DNA from: Desulfobacterales bacterium
Lineage (GTDB): Bacteria > Desulfobacterota > Desulfobacteria > Desulfobacterales > 4572-123
Reading direction: 5' to 3'
Assembly (NCBI GenBank): GCA_963667755.2
Contig: CAXXLK010000004.1
Coordinates: 839,739-903,738 of the forward strand
Length of the DNA: 64,000 nt
Shown here: positions 30,335-45,833 of the stretch, in pieces
Position numbering within the stretch: the stretch's first letter is position 1
Layout: each line of letters opens with the position of its first letter
The notes under the pieces: generated by a model
What the model was told of the DNA's origin: nothing
Seen by the model: only the letters and a program-made list of their open reading frames with translations
Databases searched by the model: none
Made by a program: the position numbers and the translations under genes

Positions 30335-30532
30335 TCAGAGGCCCATATATTCGGCATGATCGGGAATCACCGATCCCAGCCCTTTGTCGCTTCTCACTTT
30401 CGCCATGGTGGTCTCGTCGGTCGGATCCGAAATGGTTAAATTCAGTTTTTGGGCGACATATGCCTTGGCCTGCTCTATTTTCATCCTTCGCGTGAGCTGC
30501 ATCCAGGCGACCAGATCCTGTTTTACCAGCAG
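30335..30532 (-). pseudogene. C-terminal relic of dimethylamine:corrinoid methyltransferase (MtbB-like)
   Basis: Translates DLVAWMQLTRRMKIEQAKAYVAQKLNLTISDPTDETTMAKVRSDKGLG, matching the MtbB tail pattern DLVA.MQ....M.I.EAK.YVA.KL....DL.DE..M...R....G. Confidence 0.75.
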
Positions 30533-30533
30533 G

Positions 30534-32027
30534 CTATTTAATCACGCCGAGTTCCTTTTCCGTCTCACGGATGATCTCCTCAATCTCCTTTTGCGCCTGA
30601 CTGCTGATCGGGATGGGCCGATGGGTCTCGACCACGCTTCTGGCTTTTTTCAACGCCCTTTCATGCAGGCTTTGCTCTCCTTTGGACCTCCAGCTTTCGT
30701 AGGTTTCCCGGTTCATCAATTCGGGCGACATGAAATCCTTGCAGTGGGCAAAGGTACTCGGGTGCGCAAGATAGTTCCCGCTGTGGCCCACCGCCTTGAT
30801 GAGATTCACCGACAGGGTTTCCGCATTGATCTCGAATCCTTTGACCAGATGGGTAATGGCCCGGTTGATTTCGTCGTCCATCAATAACTTTCCGTAGTCC
30901 AGGGCCATCCCGCTGTCCACCATCCCCGTTCCGTAAATCAGATTGGCACCTGCCAATGCTGCCGGAAGGGAGGTCAACAGCGATTCAAAACCTGCCTGGG
31001 CATCGCACAGTTTACTGTCCACCTACCCGCCGGAGACACGCACCGGTATGTGGTAATGCCGGCCCATCTGGGTCAGGGCCGCGTTGAGCAGAGCGCCTTC
31101 CGGTGCACCCACCGCCGCCATGCCGTAACGCAGGTCGAGGGATGTCGTGGAACTGGAGTAAAACATGGGGGCTCCGGGTCGCACCAATTGTCCCAGCGCC
31201 AGGCCACTGAGCACTTCGGCATTGTGCTGCACCACGGTGCCGGCCAGATGGACAGGTGCCGTGCCACCGGCCAGGCACATGGAAAGCACGCTGGTGGTGA
31301 ACCCGTGCTCCACGGCGGCCATGAGGACCTCACTGCAATCGTCCACCAGTTGCAGCGGGCTGACCACACAAACCCCGGTGAAAAAAAACGGCCGCCGGCG
31401 AAAGGTCTCCCGGCCCACGGCGGCTTCTCCGATGGCTGCCATTTTGGGAATCAGATTGGCCGAAGGAGGGATGGCCTCCACCGGTTTGGTCGTGTTGCCC
31501 AGCATGGCCGCCAGGGTATGCAGGGTTTCCGTCACCGGGGATTCATCGGTGGCGTTCAACATGGAGATTAAAATCTTCAGACTATCCAGCGTATCCATGA
31601 CCCGGGTGACCTGGGCCACATCCGCTTTCAGCGCTTTTTTGCGTTTTCCGGTGTAAAGATCGTTGAGATATACGGTACTGCCGAAATTGACGAATCCCAG
31701 CCGGTCACCGCCCATGGTATAATCCCGGGACGGATCACGGCCCGGAATGCAGATTTCCGGCGGAATGGTGGAAAGCGCCTTCTCGATAAGAGTCGGCGGC
31801 AGATAGATGCAATTTTTGTTTTTGTCAACACGGGCTCCGTGACCGGCAAAAACGGACTGGGCCTTTTTGCTGGTCACCACAACCCCGGTTTGTTCGAGCA
31901 GTTCCAGGCTGGCCTGATGAATCCTGTTGCAATCTTCGCTGCTGAGCGCCCGCAGCCGCAGCGCGCCGGGGGGGGCCAGTTTAATTTGGCTTCTGTCGGC
32001 AGCCGTTACTGCATGCTGGGTTAACAT
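30534..32027 (-). CDS. mttB: Trimethylamine:corrinoid methyltransferase with in-frame TAG (pyrrolysine), 497 aa on read-through
   Basis: ORFs 31023-32027 and 30534-31022 are contiguous in one frame, separated only by TAG at 31023-31025: VRVSGG-TAG-VDSKLCDAQAGFES. This is codon 335 (Pyl334 in Methanosarcina MttB). RBS aaggaggg. Confidence 0.88.
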
Positions 32028-32201
32028 ACGTCCCTCCTTTTCAGTACCATCCAGAAATGGCCAATTAGCCCAACATCTGCATTCCGCTCAAAATCTTATC
32101 TTCGGGATATTAACTATATGCCTGCGGTAAAATTTTTCGCAGGCCTTGATCTCGACCCAATTTGCCTATTTCTGGATAAACACTATTTAAACCAAAGAAT
32201 A

Positions 32202-32380
32202 TGTATACAATGTTTGTATGCAAATTAACCATGATCACCGCTTCTTGTCAAGGCCCGTTTTTGGCCATAAATCTTGAAAGCTGCCTCCGGTCAAAGCGTC
32301 CGGACAGCCGGATTTCTATTGACAAAACCATAAAAGTGGCCCTACATGGATACAAATATTAAAATCAATAAATGTATACA
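32202..32380. promoter_or_regulatory. Divergent promoter region with GntR/FCD-type operators
   Basis: TGTATACA at 32202-32209 and 32373-32380, TGTATGCA at 32215-32222, TGGATACA at 32347-32354; TTGACA on + at 32319 and on - at 32251-32246. Confidence 0.65.
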
Positions 32381-32453: not shown

Positions 32454-33887
32454 GTGACGTTACCCATTTACCAGATGCTCGGTGATACACAGGTGCAGAC
32501 CATTCAGGCACACACCTTGGATCTTCTTGAAAACACCGGGGTTGCCGTCCATCACGAAGCGGCCCTGGAAATATTGGCGGAAAAAGGGGCGCGGGTGGAC
32601 ATGGCCCGCCAGCGGGCCTTTTTCCCCCCGGAACGGGTGACACAATCGCTGGCCGCCATCCCCAAGTCCTTTGTCTGTGCCGGGCGGGATTGCGAGTTCG
32701 ATTTTAAGGTGGCCTGGGATGCCCCCCCGATTTGCCGCTGTACCGGGGGGGCAGTGAATATGATCGATCTGGCCACCAACAAGAGCCGGGCGGTAACCCT
32801 CCAGGACTGCCGCGATATCGCCCGGCTCATCGACGGCTTGGACAATACGGCCTTTGCCGCCGCCCAGACCCCCTGCGACGCCTGCCTGCCGGTCTACGAT
32901 ATCCAGGTGCTCAAGGCGATGTTGTCCTCCGGGCGCAAGCATATCTGGTCCCTGGTCAGCAGTTCGAAAAACCTGGCCTACCAGATCGAGATGATGCTGG
33001 CCGTGGCCGGCTCCTCCGAGGCCCTATCCCGGCGCCCCATCTGCCACGGCATCGTCACGGTGATCGAGCAGTTCAACTTCCCAGAGGATGAGATCGAGCG
33101 ACTGCTGCAGTATGGACGCCACAAAATTCCCGTCAAAGTGCCCATCGTTCCCATGATGGGCACCAACGCCCCCACCACCATCGCCGGGGCCATGGTCCAG
33201 GCCAATACCGAGGCGGTGGCCAGCGCCGTTCTCATCGATCTCCTTTGTCCCGGTACGCCCACCTGGTACTATTTTTTCATCCAGGCCATGGACAAACGCA
33301 CCGGCAGCAGTATTTTCATGAGCCCGGAAATCATGCTCTGTTCTCTCGGCCTGATCCAGATGGCACGCCATTATCAGCTGCCGGCGGCGCCCTCTGCCTT
33401 TGAAACCACGGGGGGCCGGCTCGAGGACATCATATACGGCAACGGCATGTCGGTGAGCCTCTTTGCCCTGGCCGGCGCTTTTGAAAACGCCTCCACCGGC
33501 TGCGTCGACATGTCCATGGGGATCAGCAAAGAAGGACTTGTGATCGGCGACGAAATCTGGGGCCACACCCGACGCCTTCTGGAAGGGTTCTGCGATGAAC
33601 CCCAGGCTTTCGGTCTGGAGGCGATCAAGCGGGTCTCGCTGGACAGTGGCCATTACCTCACCGATGCCCACACCCGTGATTTTTTGCGCAAAGAGGCCCA
33701 ATTCGTGCCGAATCTCTTTGCCTATCGCTCCCACAGTACGTGGTCCCAAAACCCCCAACGCCTGGCCCAAGAGGCCCGGGAGCGGGCAAACGCCATTCTC
33801 GCGCACCACGCTGTGCCGCCTCTGGAGAAACAGCTCCTAAATGAATTGGACCGAATTGAAGCGGCGGCTAAAAAGGCACTCGAGTAA
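32454..33887 (+). CDS. Non-pyrrolysine MttB-family methyltransferase (divergent)
   Basis: LLENTGV, GA.VD, MGTNAPTTIAGAMVQANTE, MDKRTG, SPE, GHYLTDAHT; GTG start; no internal TAG. Confidence 0.85.
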   Translation: MTLPIYQMLGDTQVQTIQAHTLDLLENTGVAVHHEAALEILAEKGARVDMARQRAFFPPERVTQSLAAIPKSFVCAGRDCEFDFKVAWDAPPICRCTGGAVNMIDLATNKSRAVTLQDCRDIARLIDGLDNTAFAAAQTPCDACLPVYDIQVLKAMLSSGRKHIWSLVSSSKNLAYQIEMMLAVAGSSEALSRRPICHGIVTVIEQFNFPEDEIERLLQYGRHKIPVKVPIVPMMGTNAPTTIAGAMVQANTEAVASAVLIDLLCPGTPTWYYFFIQAMDKRTGSSIFMSPEIMLCSLGLIQMARHYQLPAAPSAFETTGGRLEDIIYGNGMSVSLFALAGAFENASTGCVDMSMGISKEGLVIGDEIWGHTRRLLEGFCDEPQAFGLEAIKRVSLDSGHYLTDAHTRDFLRKEAQFVPNLFAYRSHSTWSQNPQRLAQEARERANAILAHHAVPPLEKQLLNELDRIEAAAKKALE

Positions 33888-33966
33888 AAAGCCTGGCCCA
33901 AAAGACCATGTTTTTCAGGACAAAATAAAAAGGCCCATCTATCCGGGCTGGAGGCAAGTATCGGTT

Positions 33967-34626
33967 ATGAAAAAAAGCAATGAGGAATTCGTCTACCAGA
34001 AGCTCAAGAACGCCATCATCAAGCGCTATATCAAGCAGGGCACAAAACTGGTTGAGACCGCTCTGGCCAAACAGTTGAAGGTCAGCCGGACCCCGGTTCG
34101 CAGCGCCATCCGGCGCCTGGCCTATGAAGGTTTCGCCATCTATGAAACCAACAAGGGCGTTTGCGTCATCGCGCCCGACATCGAGGAGATCCAGGGGGCC
34201 TTCTTTGTCCGGACACAGCTGGAAAGGGCCGCCGCACAGCTGGCCGCTGAAAACATTACGACTGCGCAATTGGCCCAGCTGCATGGCTACCTCGACGAAG
34301 AGGCGCAGGTTTTCGAAAACCACAATCTGGAGGAATACTACCGCATCAACGAGGGGATCCATTTGACCATTGCCCAGGCCTCAGGCAACCCGGTCCTCAT
34401 CCGCTACATCGAAGAGCTCCTCAATCGCACCAAGATCTACCTTATCCTTTACGACCCATTTTTTTCCATGCCCATTTACCCCACTATCCACGAGCACAAG
34501 CAACTGGTGGACGCCTTGAAAACCAGAGATCCCGATGTGGCAAAGAAAGAGATGGGAATCCATCTCAAGAGCACCTTTGAAGGTCTGGATATCCAAGTGT
34601 TACCCGAGGATTATATCGCCCTTTAA
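33967..34626 (+). CDS. GntR family transcriptional regulator (FCD domain)
   Basis: LVETALAKQLKVSRTPVRSAI HTH; IHLTIAQASGN and EH motifs. Confidence 0.92.
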   Translation: MKKSNEEFVYQKLKNAIIKRYIKQGTKLVETALAKQLKVSRTPVRSAIRRLAYEGFAIYETNKGVCVIAPDIEEIQGAFFVRTQLERAAAQLAAENITTAQLAQLHGYLDEEAQVFENHNLEEYYRINEGIHLTIAQASGNPVLIRYIEELLNRTKIYLILYDPFFSMPIYPTIHEHKQLVDALKTRDPDVAKKEMGIHLKSTFEGLDIQVLPEDYIAL

Positions 34627-34830: not shown

Positions 34831-36087
34831 TCAGCCGGGAATCATTAAATGACCGTAGTGCAGGCGGTGGTCGATAATCAGGCCTTTTATGGCCTCGATG
34901 GGCATTTTTTCCCGGATCACGTAGCGGTACAATCCGGCATTACGGATATCGCCGATAAAAACAGCCCCCACCAGCCGGGTGCCGTCCCGGTTGAACACCA
35001 GTTTGCGATACGCGCCGCCACCGGCATGCCGGTGGATTTCCAGATCGGTTCCCGCCGTATGCACCGTCCCCATCGAGACAAAGGGTTCGTCCGCCACCTG
35101 GGTAGCGTTCAAGATGCCGAATGTCCCGGTGTAGGCGGTTTTGACGCCGGCCATATTCATCCCGGCACAGCAACCCATCTCCACCGCGTTGGTCCACAGG
35201 GCCGTCATGATCCGGTCTCCGGAAACGGGGTCAAACGATACGGCCACATCCCCGGCCGCAAACGCACCACCGGCCGGGCAGGCGGTATAGCGGTCCACCA
35301 CAATGCCCTGATCCAGATGCACATTGCTACCGGCCAGAAATGCCGTGTTGGGCCGCACCCCTTTTCCGATACAGACCATCTGGCAGGCCAGTTCACTGCC
35401 GTCATCCAGAGCCACACCGGTAACCCCGGAACCGTCCGACAAGAGTCCGACAGCGCTTACGCCGGTTTTGATGGTCAGTCCGGCCCGGTCCAGGGCCCGG
35501 CGCACCAGAAACGCATCGGAAGGTTCCATCAGCTGGGACAGCACCTCGGGGGAATACACCACCAGGGTCACCTTGACGTCCCTTTCCAGCAGGGAAAACG
35601 CAGCCTTGAGGTTCAGCAAGCCGCCACCGAGCATCACGGCATGGTCGGTACGCTCCACCCGCCGGGCCATCTGGCGGGCATGGGCCAGGGTCCGCAGGGC
35701 AAACACACCGTCGGCATCCGTGCCCTTGATTTCGGGCGGCACATAGGGCCGGCTGCCGGTGGCAAACAGGATTTTCCCGTATCCCATCGAGCCGCCGCCC
35801 GCCAGGGCAACGGTTTTTTCCGCGGTATCCACAGACGCGGCCCGGGCATTGGTAATCACGGCAATGTTCCGGCCGGTGTAGGGTCCGCAGCCGGCCATTG
35901 ACATTTCCGCCTGGTTTTTTTTGCCGGATACCAGGAAGGGAATCAACGGTCTGAAATACGGCCGGTCGCTTTCTTCGGAAAGCACTGTGATCTCCCCGTT
36001 TCGATCCTGCCGACGAATGGCATGGGCCGCGGCCATGCCGGCGGCACTACCGCCCACGATGAGGTACCGGCTATAGGCAGCCGCCAT
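34831..36087 (-). CDS. FAD/NAD(P)-dependent oxidoreductase (FNOR)
   Basis: IVGGSAAG, ATGSRP, GGGLL, GVRPN, AAGDVA; ATG 36087 after aagggg. Confidence 0.88.
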   Translation of the reverse strand: MAAAYSRYLIVGGSAAGMAAAHAIRRQDRNGEITVLSEESDRPYFRPLIPFLVSGKKNQAEMSMAGCGPYTGRNIAVITNARAASVDTAEKTVALAGGGSMGYGKILFATGSRPYVPPEIKGTDADGVFALRTLAHARQMARRVERTDHAVMLGGGLLNLKAAFSLLERDVKVTLVVYSPEVLSQLMEPSDAFLVRRALDRAGLTIKTGVSAVGLLSDGSGVTGVALDDGSELACQMVCIGKGVRPNTAFLAGSNVHLDQGIVVDRYTACPAGGAFAAGDVAVSFDPVSGDRIMTALWTNAVEMGCCAGMNMAGVKTAYTGTFGILNATQVADEPFVSMGTVHTAGTDLEIHRHAGGGAYRKLVFNRDGTRLVGAVFIGDIRNAGLYRYVIREKMPIEAIKGLIIDHRLHYGHLMIPG

Positions 36088-36088
36088 A

Positions 36089-36595
36089 TCAGCCCCCTTC
36101 CGCATGCTGCATTTCCCGGGAGGCCTCCTTGCGCACCTTGCCGGAAAAGGCTTTTACCGTGTCGTAAATCAGGGCTTGGGTGGGGCAGGCGCTCACACAG
36201 GCCGGGATATCACGGTCCGGACAACGGTCGCAGCGAAAGGCTTTATGGGTTTCCAAATGGCGCCCGATGACCCCGTAGGGACACACCATCACGCAGGTCC
36301 AGCAGCCGATGCACTTGTCCGCATCGGTCATCACCACCCCGTTTTCATCCCGACTGATGGCGCCGCTGATACAGGCGTGCATACAGGGAGCGTCCTCGCA
36401 GTGGCGGCAGACCAGGGGCACCTTGGTATCGGGTAAGGCCCATTCCACATAGACCCGGCTCTTGGGAACCGGGGTTTCCGCGATGGCGCCGAAAAGGGTT
36501 TTGCTTTGCGAATGTGCCACTGCACAGGCCATTGTGCAGGACAGGCACCCGACACATCGATCCGGTTTTACGAATATCTCTTTTGGTTCTTTCAT
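36089..36595 (-). CDS. cooF: CooF-type 4x[4Fe-4S] electron transfer protein
   Basis: CVGCLSCTMAC, CRHCEDAPCMHAC, CIGCWTCVMVCP, CDRC..CVSACP. Confidence 0.88.
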   Translation of the reverse strand: MKEPKEIFVKPDRCVGCLSCTMACAVAHSQSKTLFGAIAETPVPKSRVYVEWALPDTKVPLVCRHCEDAPCMHACISGAISRDENGVVMTDADKCIGCWTCVMVCPYGVIGRHLETHKAFRCDRCPDRDIPACVSACPTQALIYDTVKAFSGKVRKEASREMQHAEGG

Positions 36596-36628
36596 GGCCG
36601 ACTCCTTTTCCTGGATATATGGCAGATA

Positions 36629-38509
36629 TTAGATGCCCAATGCACTGCGCTTTTTGTCCATGTGGTCGATCATCAGCCGGGCGCCTTTGACCGGGTCGGG
36701 CTCAACGGCAAATGTGGCGCCGACGACCGCCTCGGCCCCTTTGGTCAAAAGATCGGTCACCACCGGGCTGCCCAGCACCTGCGGCACCGTCCCCAGAACC
36801 GTAAAAATACCCGACGATACCACATAAGAGCCGATGCTCACCGCTTTTTCACTCATCCATTCCGGGGCCGCGCCGGCCACCGGCAGGTCGGCGATATCCA
36901 CCCCCAGGGCATTGGCAATCGCGGCACAGGTGGTCAGAATCCGGCTGATATCCACACAGGACCCCATGTGCAGGACCGGCGGGATGCCCAGGGCCTGACA
37001 GATGCCTTTGAGTCCGTCGCCGGCCTGATCCGCCGCCTCGGGCAGCATCAGACCGAACTTGGCGCAGGCGATGGCATTGCATCCGGTTGTGGTCACCAGC
37101 ACATTGTTTTCAATCAACTCGCGGACCAGGGTCAGGTGACCGTAGTCATGTTTGATTTTTACGTTGTTGCACCCCACCACCCCGGCAATGCCCCGGATCG
37201 CGCCCGATTTTATGGCATCCAGCAGCGGATACAGGGTGCCGCCGAGGGCATTGATGATCGCTTCCGTGCTGAACCCCACCATGCATTCGGTTTTCGCTTC
37301 GGGGATGACCACCTTTTCGGGTACCCGCAGCCGGTAGTTTTCCACCGCCGTCCGGACAATCTCCCCGGCAACCTCAAAGCCCTTTTCTTCGTTAAAGGCC
37401 ACGTGGGTGGCGTCGGGAAACTTGGCCTTGGGAGAGGTGGAGATAAAACGGGTGTGAAAGCACTGGCTCAGGGGACCCAGGGACGGCATGATGCACTGGA
37501 CATCCACGATCATGGCATCCACAGCCCCGGTGATGATGGCCAGCTCCTGCTGCAGGAAATTGCCGGCCATGGGAATGCCGTGGCGCATGAGCACTTCATT
37601 GCCGGTACAGCAGAGACCGGCCACGTTGATGCCTTCAGCGCCGACTTTTTTAGCCAGGGCCGTCAGTTCGGGGTCACCGGCGGCGGCCACGATCATTTCC
37701 GACAGCACGGGTTCATGGCCGTGGACAATGATATTGACCATTTCCTCCTTTAACACGCCGAGGTTGGCCTCTGAACGAACGGGCGTTGGTGTGCCGAACA
37801 GAACATCCGACAGCTCGGTGGCAACGGTGGACCCCCCCCACCCATCGGCAATGGAGGCCTTGAGTCCCTGCAGGATCAAATTGACCGGATCGTTGTCCAC
37901 TCCGATATGGGTGCGGTGCATGATTTCGACGATTTCGCGGTCTATCCCGCGCGGATCGATTCCCAGACCCTTCCACAGGGCTACCCGTTTTTCCGGTGCC
38001 CGGCGGGTAAACCGGATAAATCCTTCCTGTCGGCCGAATTCGGCATACACGGCCTTGGCCAGGTCAAGGGCGATGTCATTATCACCACGATTTTCGGTGG
38101 CAATCTCGTATTCCGTGGCCAGGGCCTTTAGTTTTTTACTGTCCCGGATCTCGTAGCCGCCCCCCTTGCCCTCGGCGGTCAGTAGCAGGGTGTGGGCCAG
38201 GTCCCGGCCATGGTCCGAATGGGCCGCCGCGCCGCCGGCGATCATACGAATCAGATTACGGGCCACAATGATATCCGCGGTGGCCCCGCAGATCCCCTTT
38301 TTCGGACCGTTGTCATCAAAGGGGGTGATGCGGCAGGGGCCCATGTTGCAGTTTCTGCAGCAGACCCCCAGTTCTCCGAAGCCGCACTGTGGCAGCATTT
38401 TTTCATACCGGCCCCAGACGGTTTCCAGGTCCAGTTCCTCGGCCCGTTCCAGCATGCGATGAACGGTGGGGTCGATGCTTTTCGCAGTGATCTTTTCGCT
38501 GTACGCCAT
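36629..38509 (-). CDS. cooS: Anaerobic Ni-containing carbon monoxide dehydrogenase catalytic subunit
   Basis: CGFG..GVCCRNCNMGPC, AAAHSDH, VHGHEP, GLCCTG, DVQC, GCNN, TGCNA, GSCVD, SEKA all present. Confidence 0.96.
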   Translation of the reverse strand: MAYSEKITAKSIDPTVHRMLERAEELDLETVWGRYEKMLPQCGFGELGVCCRNCNMGPCRITPFDDNGPKKGICGATADIIVARNLIRMIAGGAAAHSDHGRDLAHTLLLTAEGKGGGYEIRDSKKLKALATEYEIATENRGDNDIALDLAKAVYAEFGRQEGFIRFTRRAPEKRVALWKGLGIDPRGIDREIVEIMHRTHIGVDNDPVNLILQGLKASIADGWGGSTVATELSDVLFGTPTPVRSEANLGVLKEEMVNIIVHGHEPVLSEMIVAAAGDPELTALAKKVGAEGINVAGLCCTGNEVLMRHGIPMAGNFLQQELAIITGAVDAMIVDVQCIMPSLGPLSQCFHTRFISTSPKAKFPDATHVAFNEEKGFEVAGEIVRTAVENYRLRVPEKVVIPEAKTECMVGFSTEAIINALGGTLYPLLDAIKSGAIRGIAGVVGCNNVKIKHDYGHLTLVRELIENNVLVTTTGCNAIACAKFGLMLPEAADQAGDGLKGICQALGIPPVLHMGSCVDISRILTTCAAIANALGVDIADLPVAGAAPEWMSEKAVSIGSYVVSSGIFTVLGTVPQVLGSPVVTDLLTKGAEAVVGATFAVEPDPVKGARLMIDHMDKKRSALGI

Positions 38510-44891: not shown

Positions 44892-45003
44892 TAAAATCTC
44901 CTTGGTTGGGTGCGGCTTGATAGTGAATGGTCAATATCCAATGATAAGCAGGAATACCTGTGAAAGCAAGGCCTGTAATGAGACTGGTTATCGGTTGACG
45001 GTT

Positions 45004-45833
45004 TCCGGGTAAAGGCACCGGTTACCCGGCGCCCTCCCCACAGATCCGTACGTGAAGATTTCCCTCATACGGTTCCTCGGTTCAGATCCTTTTTACCGGA
45101 TCGTCAACCTGACAGGCGACACCCCGTCAGGCGTATAACTCTGCTCCCCATATCGCAGTTTACAGGGATTCCGGTGACATGATTTGTGGCCTCGGTGTGC
45201 CTCTCATCTTTCCTTCCTGTAAAACGTTATACCCTGCTTCACCTTCCCTACAGTGGGTCGCTTTGGGTGCCACTTCCCCACCTTACCGTCTCGTGTTTAT
45301 ACCCCGAGACATCGGTACTATGATCCGCTAAGACTTCCGAATGTCCATCCCGGGATTGTTCGCTTTTGGCTATCCGCACCCGGTACCTATGTCGTATTCA
45401 TAGGAAACATTCGGACCTCCCGAGTTCCCGAGTCACCCCCATGAGAGCATGCCCTGGTCTCAGACCCCGGTGGTGTCCTGCATACTTGCCATAGCGCATA
45501 CAGGACTGCTGCCTTCCATGTTTTGCACCACGTCGGCTTTCCCCTGTCTCCAGGTTTATCCAATGACCACGACTATACATTTTTCGGGGCTCAATACAGA
45601 GCCTGCACCCTTGATCCATCCGGCTCCAGACTCCCGTCTCCGGGTTTACCTGCGGATTTCACTACTGACCCGCTGGATCGGCTTTGGTCAGGTGGGACTT
45701 TCTTAACCTCAACGCCAGGGCAAGCCCTGCAAGAAGGAAGACGGTTTTACGGCCGCCCGATCACCCACTGGGTAACATTATCGAATTTCAAAGATCTCTC
45801 TTATTCCGACGATTCGGATTTAGCTCGGCGCGA
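45004..45833 (-). mobile_element. ORF-less group II intron (about 830 nt; ends accurate to a few nt)
   Basis: Minus strand DV GAACCGTATGAGGGAAATCTTCACGTACGGATC; DVI GGGGAGGGCGCCGGGTAACCGGTGCCTTTACCCGG; DI motifs GAAAGTCC, TGAGCCCCGAAA, GCCGAC..GGAAGGCAGCA; GGAAGTCTTAGCGGATCATAGTACC at DII/III; no RT ORF. Confidence 0.88.

Follow-up and report, generated by a model that had tools for sequence, protein, structure and literature searches.

An intact, probably pyrrolysine-reading gene of a separate MttB clade in a Desulfobacterales genome, held as fragments in public gene calls

A methyltransferase gene interrupted by an in-frame TAG raises the question of whether the codon ends translation or is read as pyrrolysine (Pyl) and, if it is read, which substrate the enzyme serves. 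The gene considered here lies on the minus strand of a 64,000-nt stretch of a Desulfobacterales bacterium (the window, C4:839739-903738 of a 6.02-Mb genome in 4 contigs) and encodes a protein, designated X, of the MttB family of trimethylamine (TMA) methyltransferases. Taken as a whole, the evidence argues with good confidence for an intact Pyl-type gene of a separate clade, clade X, with its UAG read as Pyl and with its gene module eroded in this genome. Pyl-mttB in Desulfobacterales is known biology, and as such this find is ordinary. The part that is not ordinary is clade X: it is separate, it occurs in public gene calls only as fragments, it joins Pyl to a nearby arginine, and in relatives it has a module of its own. 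The gene has the following features:

30534-32027, minus strand: Pyl-type MttB-family methyltransferase gene, 497 codons plus a terminal TAG; member of clade X
31023-31025, minus strand: in-frame TAG, codon 335, very probably read as pyrrolysine; aligns with Pyl334 of Methanosarcina barkeri MttB
30534-30536, minus strand: terminal stop of mttB, also TAG; read-through would add 110 residues
32032-32039, minus strand: Shine-Dalgarno-like AAGGAGGG, 4 nt 5' of the ATG, read by eye

From 32027 to 30534 the minus strand holds a 497-codon frame whose sole internal stop is a TAG in the context SGG-TAG-VDSKLCDAQAGFE; the plus strand over the same interval holds many unrelated frames. This is the single gene, intact in both halves but split by the open reading frame (ORF) caller, that the initial annotation had proposed: the table-11 ORF list cuts it into 31023-32027 (334 aa) and 30534-31022 (162 aa, with a spurious GTG start), and the read-through protein brings both halves into one family match to Pfam MTTB (PF06253; 314.8 bits, residues 24-493). 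Its score on the NCBIfam equivalog TIGR02369, 545.1 bits, is marginally above the cut-off of 525. The initial annotation named neither the strand nor the TAG with which the gene itself ends. The stretch is also covered by contigs from two public runs of two studies, one without any difference and the other with 1, no difference being listed at the TAG; one of these runs may be the window's own source. From an RNA library (run X11) comes a contig of 195 nt that spans 31358-31552 with 1 difference; it leaves most of the gene uncovered and is no evidence of transcription.

The TAG occupies the Pyl column of the family. The best solved-structure match of the read-through protein is the M. barkeri trimethylamine methyltransferase (E 1e-79, residues 23-491), and residue 335 stands opposite the non-standard residue X334, which is Pyl, of PDB chain 7xcl_A. 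In the available part of Li et al. 2023 (PMC9842639), Gly110-Thr111, Met249 and Tyr364 around Pyl334 are given as catalytically important; G116-S117, M250 and Y365 of X align with them, with Thr replaced by Ser. The genome contains 35 PF06253 matches, 9 of them with exactly one TAG. When 32 of the 35 were aligned (three short fragments were excluded), all 9 TAGs, that of X and those of eight paralogs, shared one column, in which the 23 others have sense residues. A maximum likelihood tree places the 9 TAG genes in one clade (support 100/99) with four sense-codon genes nested inside, and X is the longest and deepest branch of that clade. One of the 9 TAG-mttB genes is N-terminally split (C2:2507191-2508494). 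Together with 8 TAG-interrupted mtbB genes, the 9 mttB genes bring the TAG-interrupted methyltransferase genes of this genome (G000) to 17; the counts found in the consulted parts of earlier reports, 8 such genes in the delta1 symbiont and 7 Pyl-MttB in strain DCMF, are both lower. Pyl-type mtmB was not found in the genome, which has two sense-codon MtmB homologs instead.

Orthologs of X were sought in 41 related genomes. Three of four congeneric genomes carry one at 72-75% identity with one TAG each; in the fourth the best match is just 42% identical. A codon alignment of the gene with its three congeners has the TAG in 4/4 (proportion of synonymous differences, pS, 0.26-0.73), and the ratio of nonsynonymous to synonymous rates (dN/dS) is 0.067-0.134 upstream and 0.070-0.160 downstream of it. 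A scan of species genomes added loci in Desulfobacteraceae, Desulfosarcinaceae and Desulfobacter metagenome-assembled genomes at 72-81% identity; three of the scanned loci were the same contigs as the congeners, which leaves 8 distinct genomes in total. TAG stands at the site in all 8 genomes with an ortholog; the nearest homologs all have it and none has a sense codon there, and dN/dS is about 0.07-0.19 on either side of it. Relaxed constraint on X after the loss of its partner genes was considered and left no sign in the rates: the dN of X to three outgroups is 0.164-0.201 vs 0.163-0.214 for orthologs with the full module. From this conservation, translation of the codon 335 UAG as Pyl appears very probable.

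The apparatus for such translation is complete. ARAGORN finds a single tRNA-Pyl (CUA) at C4:375825-375898, and 3' of it lie pylSc (336 bits), a thioesterase-like ORF, pylB (472.5), pylC (392.1), pylD (250.8) and a methyl-tetrahydrofolate (methyl-THF):corrinoid methyltransferase, with pylSn (132.3 bits) 2 kb beyond that block. The pyl set occupies C4:375825-380739, on the same contig and ~460 kb from mttB, and all scores exceed the curated cut-offs. Because the genome carries tRNA-Pyl, pylSc, pylSn and pylBCD, the gene is not a stranded, non-functional acquisition, an outcome for which the initial annotation had left room, and recent foreign acquisition without the machinery is rejected. Also in the genome are 8 full-length TAG-mtbB genes, 10 matches to the corrinoid-protein family TIGR02370 (3 over the cut-off) and 4 RACo/RamA-type activases. 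The further claim that the organism uses Pyl for TMA demethylation stood for the organism, where it rests better on the 8 canonical Pyl-mttB and 8 Pyl-mtbB genes; for this particular copy, given Arg330 and the gene context discussed below, TMA as the substrate is about an even call.

Some details of the pyl locus and its partners were also recorded. pylSc itself terminates in TAG (L006 10791-10793, G000:C4), and read-through there would add 17 residues (Pyl + 16). The ORF between pylSc and pylB (L006 10876-11322) is YbgC/FadM-like acyl-CoA thioesterase in type (57.5 bits, under the cut-off), and pylSn is placed 3' of pylD and not beside pylSc. A corrinoid-protein gene beside a TAG-mttB/mtbB block (G000:C2:962452-963036) has an in-frame TAA and is possibly a pseudogene.

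Clade X stands well apart in protein databases. A word-indexed search returned 62 clusters at 65-93% identity, all of them fragments and 44 of them exactly 334 residues long; beyond these came two fragments at 56% and 50%, and then full-length proteins at 43% or less. When 1.84 billion representatives were searched exhaustively, one full-length 50%-identity representative scored 542 bits and the next distinct relative 271 bits; a 154-residue fragment at 72% identity was also returned. Three clade X members score 536-564 bits on TIGR02369 vs 570-760 for seven canonical paralogs of the genome. X is 36-43% identical to the canonical copies; it is the sole clade X member of the genome and is not among its eight canonical Pyl-mttB. 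By these comparisons clade X is sharply separate from canonical Pyl-MttB, and it is widespread. Public gene calls hold it as UAG-cut fragments, and it is therefore invisible to annotation-based surveys; with all 62 clusters recorded in this way, the word "hidden" that had been applied to the gene is fair. Literature searches for a non-TMA Pyl-MttB or for the hairpin described below returned no description, the sole related item being an open remark in PMC9768040.

The setting of the gene is otherwise familiar. According to the consulted parts of the reports on marine Desulfobacterales (Kivenson et al. 2021, PMC8318568) and the delta1 symbiont (PMC1976440), these sulfate-reducer-type bacteria likewise have pylTSBCD, TAG-mttB, TAG-mtbB, non-Pyl MttB homologs and a nearby regulator. 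In canonical Desulfobacterales Pyl-MttB, as far as these sources describe it and as in the 8 other copies of this genome, Pyl is at ~327-328 of 485-492 residues, whereas in X it is residue 335 of 497; the canonical proteins have an aromatic residue five positions before Pyl (-5), where X has Arg. M. barkeri MttB (PDB 7XCL/7XCM/7XCN; in the portion of PMC9842639 consulted) is of the same family and length as X, with UAG at the Pyl334 column and with the Gly110, Met249 and Tyr364 equivalents kept, but identity is moderate, and Thr111 is replaced by Ser, Tyr329 by Arg330 and His346 by Phe347 (Tyr in most orthologs). The hosts also differ, that of X being bacterial with a split pylS and presumably using tetrahydrofolate (THF) as methyl acceptor in place of the coenzyme M of M. 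barkeri.

The arginine is the residue on which the substrate question turns:

31038-31040, minus strand: Arg330 codon, five residues 5' of Pyl; aligns with MtgB R312 and M. barkeri Tyr329

The motif of clade X is IPVRVSGG-O, with Arg five residues before Pyl (O), at the place of Tyr329 in M. barkeri. In 35 TAG-type rows the residue at -5 is F in 13, W in 6, Y in 6, Q in 1 and R in 9, the nine Arg rows being 8 from clade X and 1 from another lineage (L015). Among TAG-truncated representatives Arg is at -5 in 2/31, one from clade X and one an MSBL1 archaeal protein, and Arg330 is present in 61/62 database fragments of clade X. The two Arg-bearing sequences from outside the clade are L015 (G040:C54), a canonical-looking TAG-type MttB with LLPCRVAGG-O in a 610-codon open frame, and a candidate division MSBL1 archaeon fragment (P0153) with PARVSGS.

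MtgB, the glycine betaine methyltransferase of Desulfitobacterium hafniense (PDB 2QNE/9YCE; PMC13080624), shares the superfamily with X (E 4e-63). The MtgB study (JBC 2026), in the part available, reports from substitution and a ligand-bound structure that R312 salt-bridges the substrate carboxylate, and describes R312 as conserved among characterised members acting on acidic quaternary amines. In the phmmer alignment Arg330 is opposite chain residue R310 of 9yce_A; since chain H346 and F354 are H348 and F356 of the paper, an offset of +2, chain R310 is R312 of the paper. MtgB and X both have the motif DSKxxDAQAG[Y/F]ES after the Pyl column, unlike the QAGHEK of M. barkeri MttB. They differ at the Pyl column, where MtgB has Leu and X has TAG, and the substrate of MtgB, in the same partial source, is a quaternary amine. 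X has the Pyl apparatus of MttB and an Arg aligned with R312 of MtgB in one protein, and thus combines both. By homology Arg330 would line the substrate pocket. As the substrate of X, a tertiary amine that bears a carboxylate, for instance an N,N-dimethyl amino acid like dimethylglycine or a dimethylated basic amino acid, is given a chance just short of even, and trimethylamine a slightly smaller one; the remainder falls to other substrates or to none.

The genes around X, and around its orthologs, bear on the same question. The relevant features of the window are:

32454-33887, plus strand: Y, a non-Pyl MttB-like gene divergent from X; with X in 6/8 genomes; without MtgB R312 and H348
33841-34626, plus strand: GntR/FCD-family regulator; ortholog homology begins at about residue 34-44 of the ORF
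32202-32209, no strand assigned: palindrome TGTATACA, candidate GntR operator, copy 1; one of just two in the 64-kb window
32373-32380, no strand assigned: palindrome TGTATACA, candidate GntR operator, copy 2; the second of the two
30350-30523, minus strand: relic of mtbB', a divergent gene for a Pyl-type dimethylamine methyltransferase that is full-length in orthologous loci; 52-58 C-terminal residues remain

Y scores 278 bits on TIGR02369, under the cut-off, has Ala at both the R312 and the H348 positions and has no DxKxxDxQ motif. It adjoins X in 6 of the 8 genomes; one genome (G004) has fragments only, and in a 17-kb locus (L024) Y was not found. Its only paralog in the genome (G000:C2:972985-974403) also adjoins a TAG-mttB, and the two form a very divergent non-Pyl MttB-like subfamily with support 100/100 and long branches. 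In the closest ortholog locus (L019) one strand carries a fused permease, a family-3 binding protein, an ABC ATPase, GntR and Y, and the other X, a TAG-bearing mtbB' and a pterin-binding methyl-THF methyltransferase. This mtbB' scores 530 bits on Dimeth_Pyl and 440.2 vs a cut-off of 369.1 on TIGR02368, the dimethylamine equivalog. mtbB' lies 3' of X in 5 loci, and in a sixth the contig breaks off after 74 residues of it. Identity of the mtbB' genes to the L019 copy is 79-81%, and to canonical mtbB 43-49%. The importer is present in 3 loci, and its binding protein is nearest to lysine/arginine/ornithine and histidine types (225-228 bits, below the cut-off of 256). Both window copies of TGTATACA lie between X and Y, and in relatives the palindrome is found 41-239 nt 5' of X in 4 loci and 5' of importer genes in 2. 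This distribution fits one regulon under the GntR protein, in which TGTATACA would be a putative operator.

In the genome studied here this module has been eroded. An MtbB Pfam search gave a 58-residue match (model 379-436 of 463) on the minus strand at window 30350-30523 (C4:870088-870261). The relic shows 54% identity to canonical MtbB across 52 residues, has the string DLVAWMQLTRRMKI in common with L019 mtbB' (by eye), and begins 16 nt past the mttB stop in another frame. Only a C-terminal relic is thus found 16 nt 3' of mttB, and therefore ~375 codons of mtbB' have been deleted. The nearest methyl-THF methyltransferase of the genome (69%) is the one beside pylD. G004 also has no mtbB' downstream of X.

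The steps that would follow from these components are as follows. The UAG at codon 335 would be translated as Pyl by the host's own pylT, pylSc, pylSn and pylBCD. By homology with the M. barkeri enzyme, full-length X would bind a methylated tertiary amine through the imine of Pyl and transfer one of its methyl groups to a corrinoid protein from another locus of the genome; tetrahydrofolate would accept the methyl next and carry it into the Wood-Ljungdahl pathway. The module of relatives (Pyl-mtbB', Y, GntR/FCD and importer) is eroded here, with mtbB as a relic and the importer absent.

Other elements of the window were also recorded. A 129-nt element at 32049-32177, 20-150 nt 5' of the mttB start, is bounded by inverted repeats of 16 nt (88% complementary) and contains a GC hairpin. 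It has 14 diverged partial copies in the genome at 70-83% identity, matches very many public-run contigs (with a summed depth that reaches 36,816 in one of the runs) and has no Rfam match above the gathering score; it looks like a miniature inverted-repeat transposable element (MITE)-like repeat or a dispersed small RNA gene. Directly beyond GntR, at 34831-38509 on the minus strand, are genes for CooS, the catalytic subunit of an anaerobic CO dehydrogenase (713.5 bits), for a 4Fe-4S protein and for an FAD/NAD oxidoreductase. At 45003-45701, minus strand, Rfam matches to domains D1-D4 (99.9 bits) and D5-D6 (42.1 bits) of group II introns span only ~700 nt in all; a degraded intron of this group, or one that lacks an ORF, may lie here.

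One short segment 3' of the UAG is invariant at the nucleotide level among the orthologs:

30942-30957, minus strand: 16-nt hairpin AUUGGC-AGGU-GCCAAU; starts 66 nt past the UAG, inside a 17-nt run invariant in 8 orthologs

Across the 8 orthologs 258 codons are amino-acid-invariant and degenerate, and the 28 of them that keep one codon throughout cluster 18-28 codons past the TAG. The longest invariant run is the 17-nt TTGGCAGGTGCCAATCT, and the runner-up is 8 nt. Within TTGGCAGGTGCCAATCT is the inverted repeat TTGGCA/TGCCAA; together with the A and U that flank it, this makes a 6-bp stem with the loop AGGU. All 9 TAG paralogs of the genome have a hairpin at the same spot, 8 with the same sequence and 1 with a different sequence that pairs; sense-codon paralogs with the same peptide use CTG and GCC codons and show no pairing. 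The motif TTGGCAGGNGCCAA occurs 51 times in the 41 genomes, 48 times inside TAG-bearing MttB matches and 3 times elsewhere, and its reversed control pattern 5 times. Among the matches listed it is present in 48/64 TAG-bearing vs 0/86 non-TAG MttB matches, where a match with TAG and another stop counts as TAG and one with TGA or TAA only as non-TAG.

Pairing in this helix extends over 89.4% of cells in 33 TAG-type sequences, vs 24-55% with the partner slid. The outermost pair, both sides of which are synonymous third positions 15 nt apart, is A-U in 14 sequences, G-C in 14 and unpaired in 5, and pair 15-24 is G-C in 28, U-A in 3 and A-U in 2. When only genes encoding L-A-G-A-N are compared, three of the pairs hinge on which synonymous codons are used. 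These form in 71/78 cells across 26 TAG genes, 21/26 of which have all six pairs, and in 7/21 cells across 7 sense-codon controls, 0/7 of which do; for this comparison 25 of 28 sense-codon genes were located and 3 were not, the hairpin counts are inflated by relatedness, and about two ortholog groups account for the 7 controls. RNAalifold on the 117 nt past the TAG in 8 orthologs gave a covariation term of just -0.05, and of its fold the small hairpin alone was retained.

A recoding element of known type was also considered. The Rfam model RF02510 PYLIS_3, the PYLIS model for mttB, matches directly past the UAG at 67.7 bits (gathering score 38), but it passes on 6/8 sense-codon paralogs as well (40.5-60.8 bits), for which reason the match is not independent support; the alignment includes non-standard pairs, and PYLIS_3 was rejected as evidence of a recoding element. 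The match mostly reflects coding sequence, and the hairpin lies outside the annotated structure of the model. Theil Have 2013 (PMC3639795) and Zhang & Gladyshev 2007 (PMC1976440) both report that a structure common to mttB or to bacterial Pyl genes was not found. The hairpin is too far from the UAG to contact the ribosome decoding it. One guess is a cis effect: the hairpin may shift the ratio of Pyl insertion to termination, or influence how well the mRNA 3' of the UAG survives.

Several observations weigh against the reading of X as a translated Pyl enzyme with a substrate other than TMA. TAG is an ordinary stop in this genome, ending 453 of 2512 long non-overlapping frames, and it is the gene's own terminator, where read-through would go on for 110 residues; the case for translation through the internal UAG is one of conservation. 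The margin of X over the TIGR02369 cut-off is only 20 bits. None of the 10 TIGR02370 corrinoid-protein matches falls inside the window, so that there is no adjoining MttC. Because mtbB' is deleted and orthologs of mtbB' (best match 49%) and of the importer (35%) were not found elsewhere in the genome, X may be an orphan here. As to substrate, the catalytic residues are MttB-type and MtgB H348, Y97 and F356 are unmatched, standing opposite Gly366, Gly116 and Gly373; the mttB-mtbB pairing is like that of canonical TMA/DMA loci; and Arg330 is placed in the pocket by homology.

These points lend themselves to other explanations of unequal weight. That faulty sequencing or assembly turned a sense codon into the TAG is barely conceivable: nothing was found in its favour, and the codon recurs in contigs of two public runs of two studies and in 7 other genomes, while 61/62 database fragments end just 5' of it. 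A dead or dying remnant, in which translation ends at the TAG with a 334-residue fragment as its only product, if any, and the locus decays after loss of its partners, could draw on the reduction of mtbB' to a relic, the missing orthologs of mtbB' and importer, the repeat element in the 5' region and the erosion of the module in G004 too. It is nevertheless improbable for a gene of 497 codons that has neither frameshift nor second stop, whose dN/dS against congeners is 0.07-0.13 past the TAG, whose dN to outgroups is not above that of full-module orthologs, and which keeps its catalytic residues and hairpin intact in a genome with a complete pyl system.

An ordinary isozyme is a much more serious contender, if one placed below an even chance. 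X would then be the ninth trimethylamine:corrinoid methyltransferase of the genome, mtbB' of relatives would take dimethylamine, and Arg330 and the gene context would be irrelevant to specificity. The position of X above the equivalog cut-off, the retained equivalents of Gly110, Met249 and Tyr364, the mttB-then-mtbB order found also in four canonical loci of the genome, and the score of L019 mtbB' over the dimethylamine equivalog (440.2 vs 369.1) all agree with this. It sits less easily with the Arg of X, since 25/26 non-Arg TAG-type rows have an aromatic residue there (the other has Gln) and the Arg is at the position of MtgB's demonstrated carboxylate binder. Eight canonical copies are already present in the genome, X and mtbB' are merely ~40-49% identical to canonical copies, and in relatives the palindrome is common to the module and a Lys/Arg/Orn/His-type importer. 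The more specific alternative, put forward tentatively as a whole, is that X is a Pyl methyltransferase for a carboxylate-bearing tertiary amine, with Arg330 holding the carboxylate and Pyl activating the amine. X would act in series with Pyl-MtbB' on the secondary amine and with the Lys/Arg/Orn/His-type importer, under one GntR/FCD regulator, for complete anaerobic N-demethylation of a methylated amino acid; a selected hairpin 66 nt past the UAG in TAG-type mttB would have a part in UAG handling.

To our knowledge, pyrrolysine in nature is confined to three methylamine methyltransferase families, and all Pyl-MttBs have been assumed to be active on TMA. Clade X is notable because it joins Pyl to the carboxylate-binding Arg of a betaine enzyme, against that TMA-only assumption. 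Should none of the proposals above hold, this would be one more ordinary Pyl-mttB in a genome with many. With its own Pyl-MtbB and an amino-acid-type importer, clade X is a testable candidate for a wider Pyl substrate range. The anaerobic enzymes that remove methyl groups from tertiary and secondary methylated amino acids have yet to be identified, and clade X is a candidate for these too; the enzyme for the dimethylglycine step is left unassigned in Holland et al. 2022. The hairpin, in turn, bears on how bacteria with UAG stops also read UAG as Pyl.

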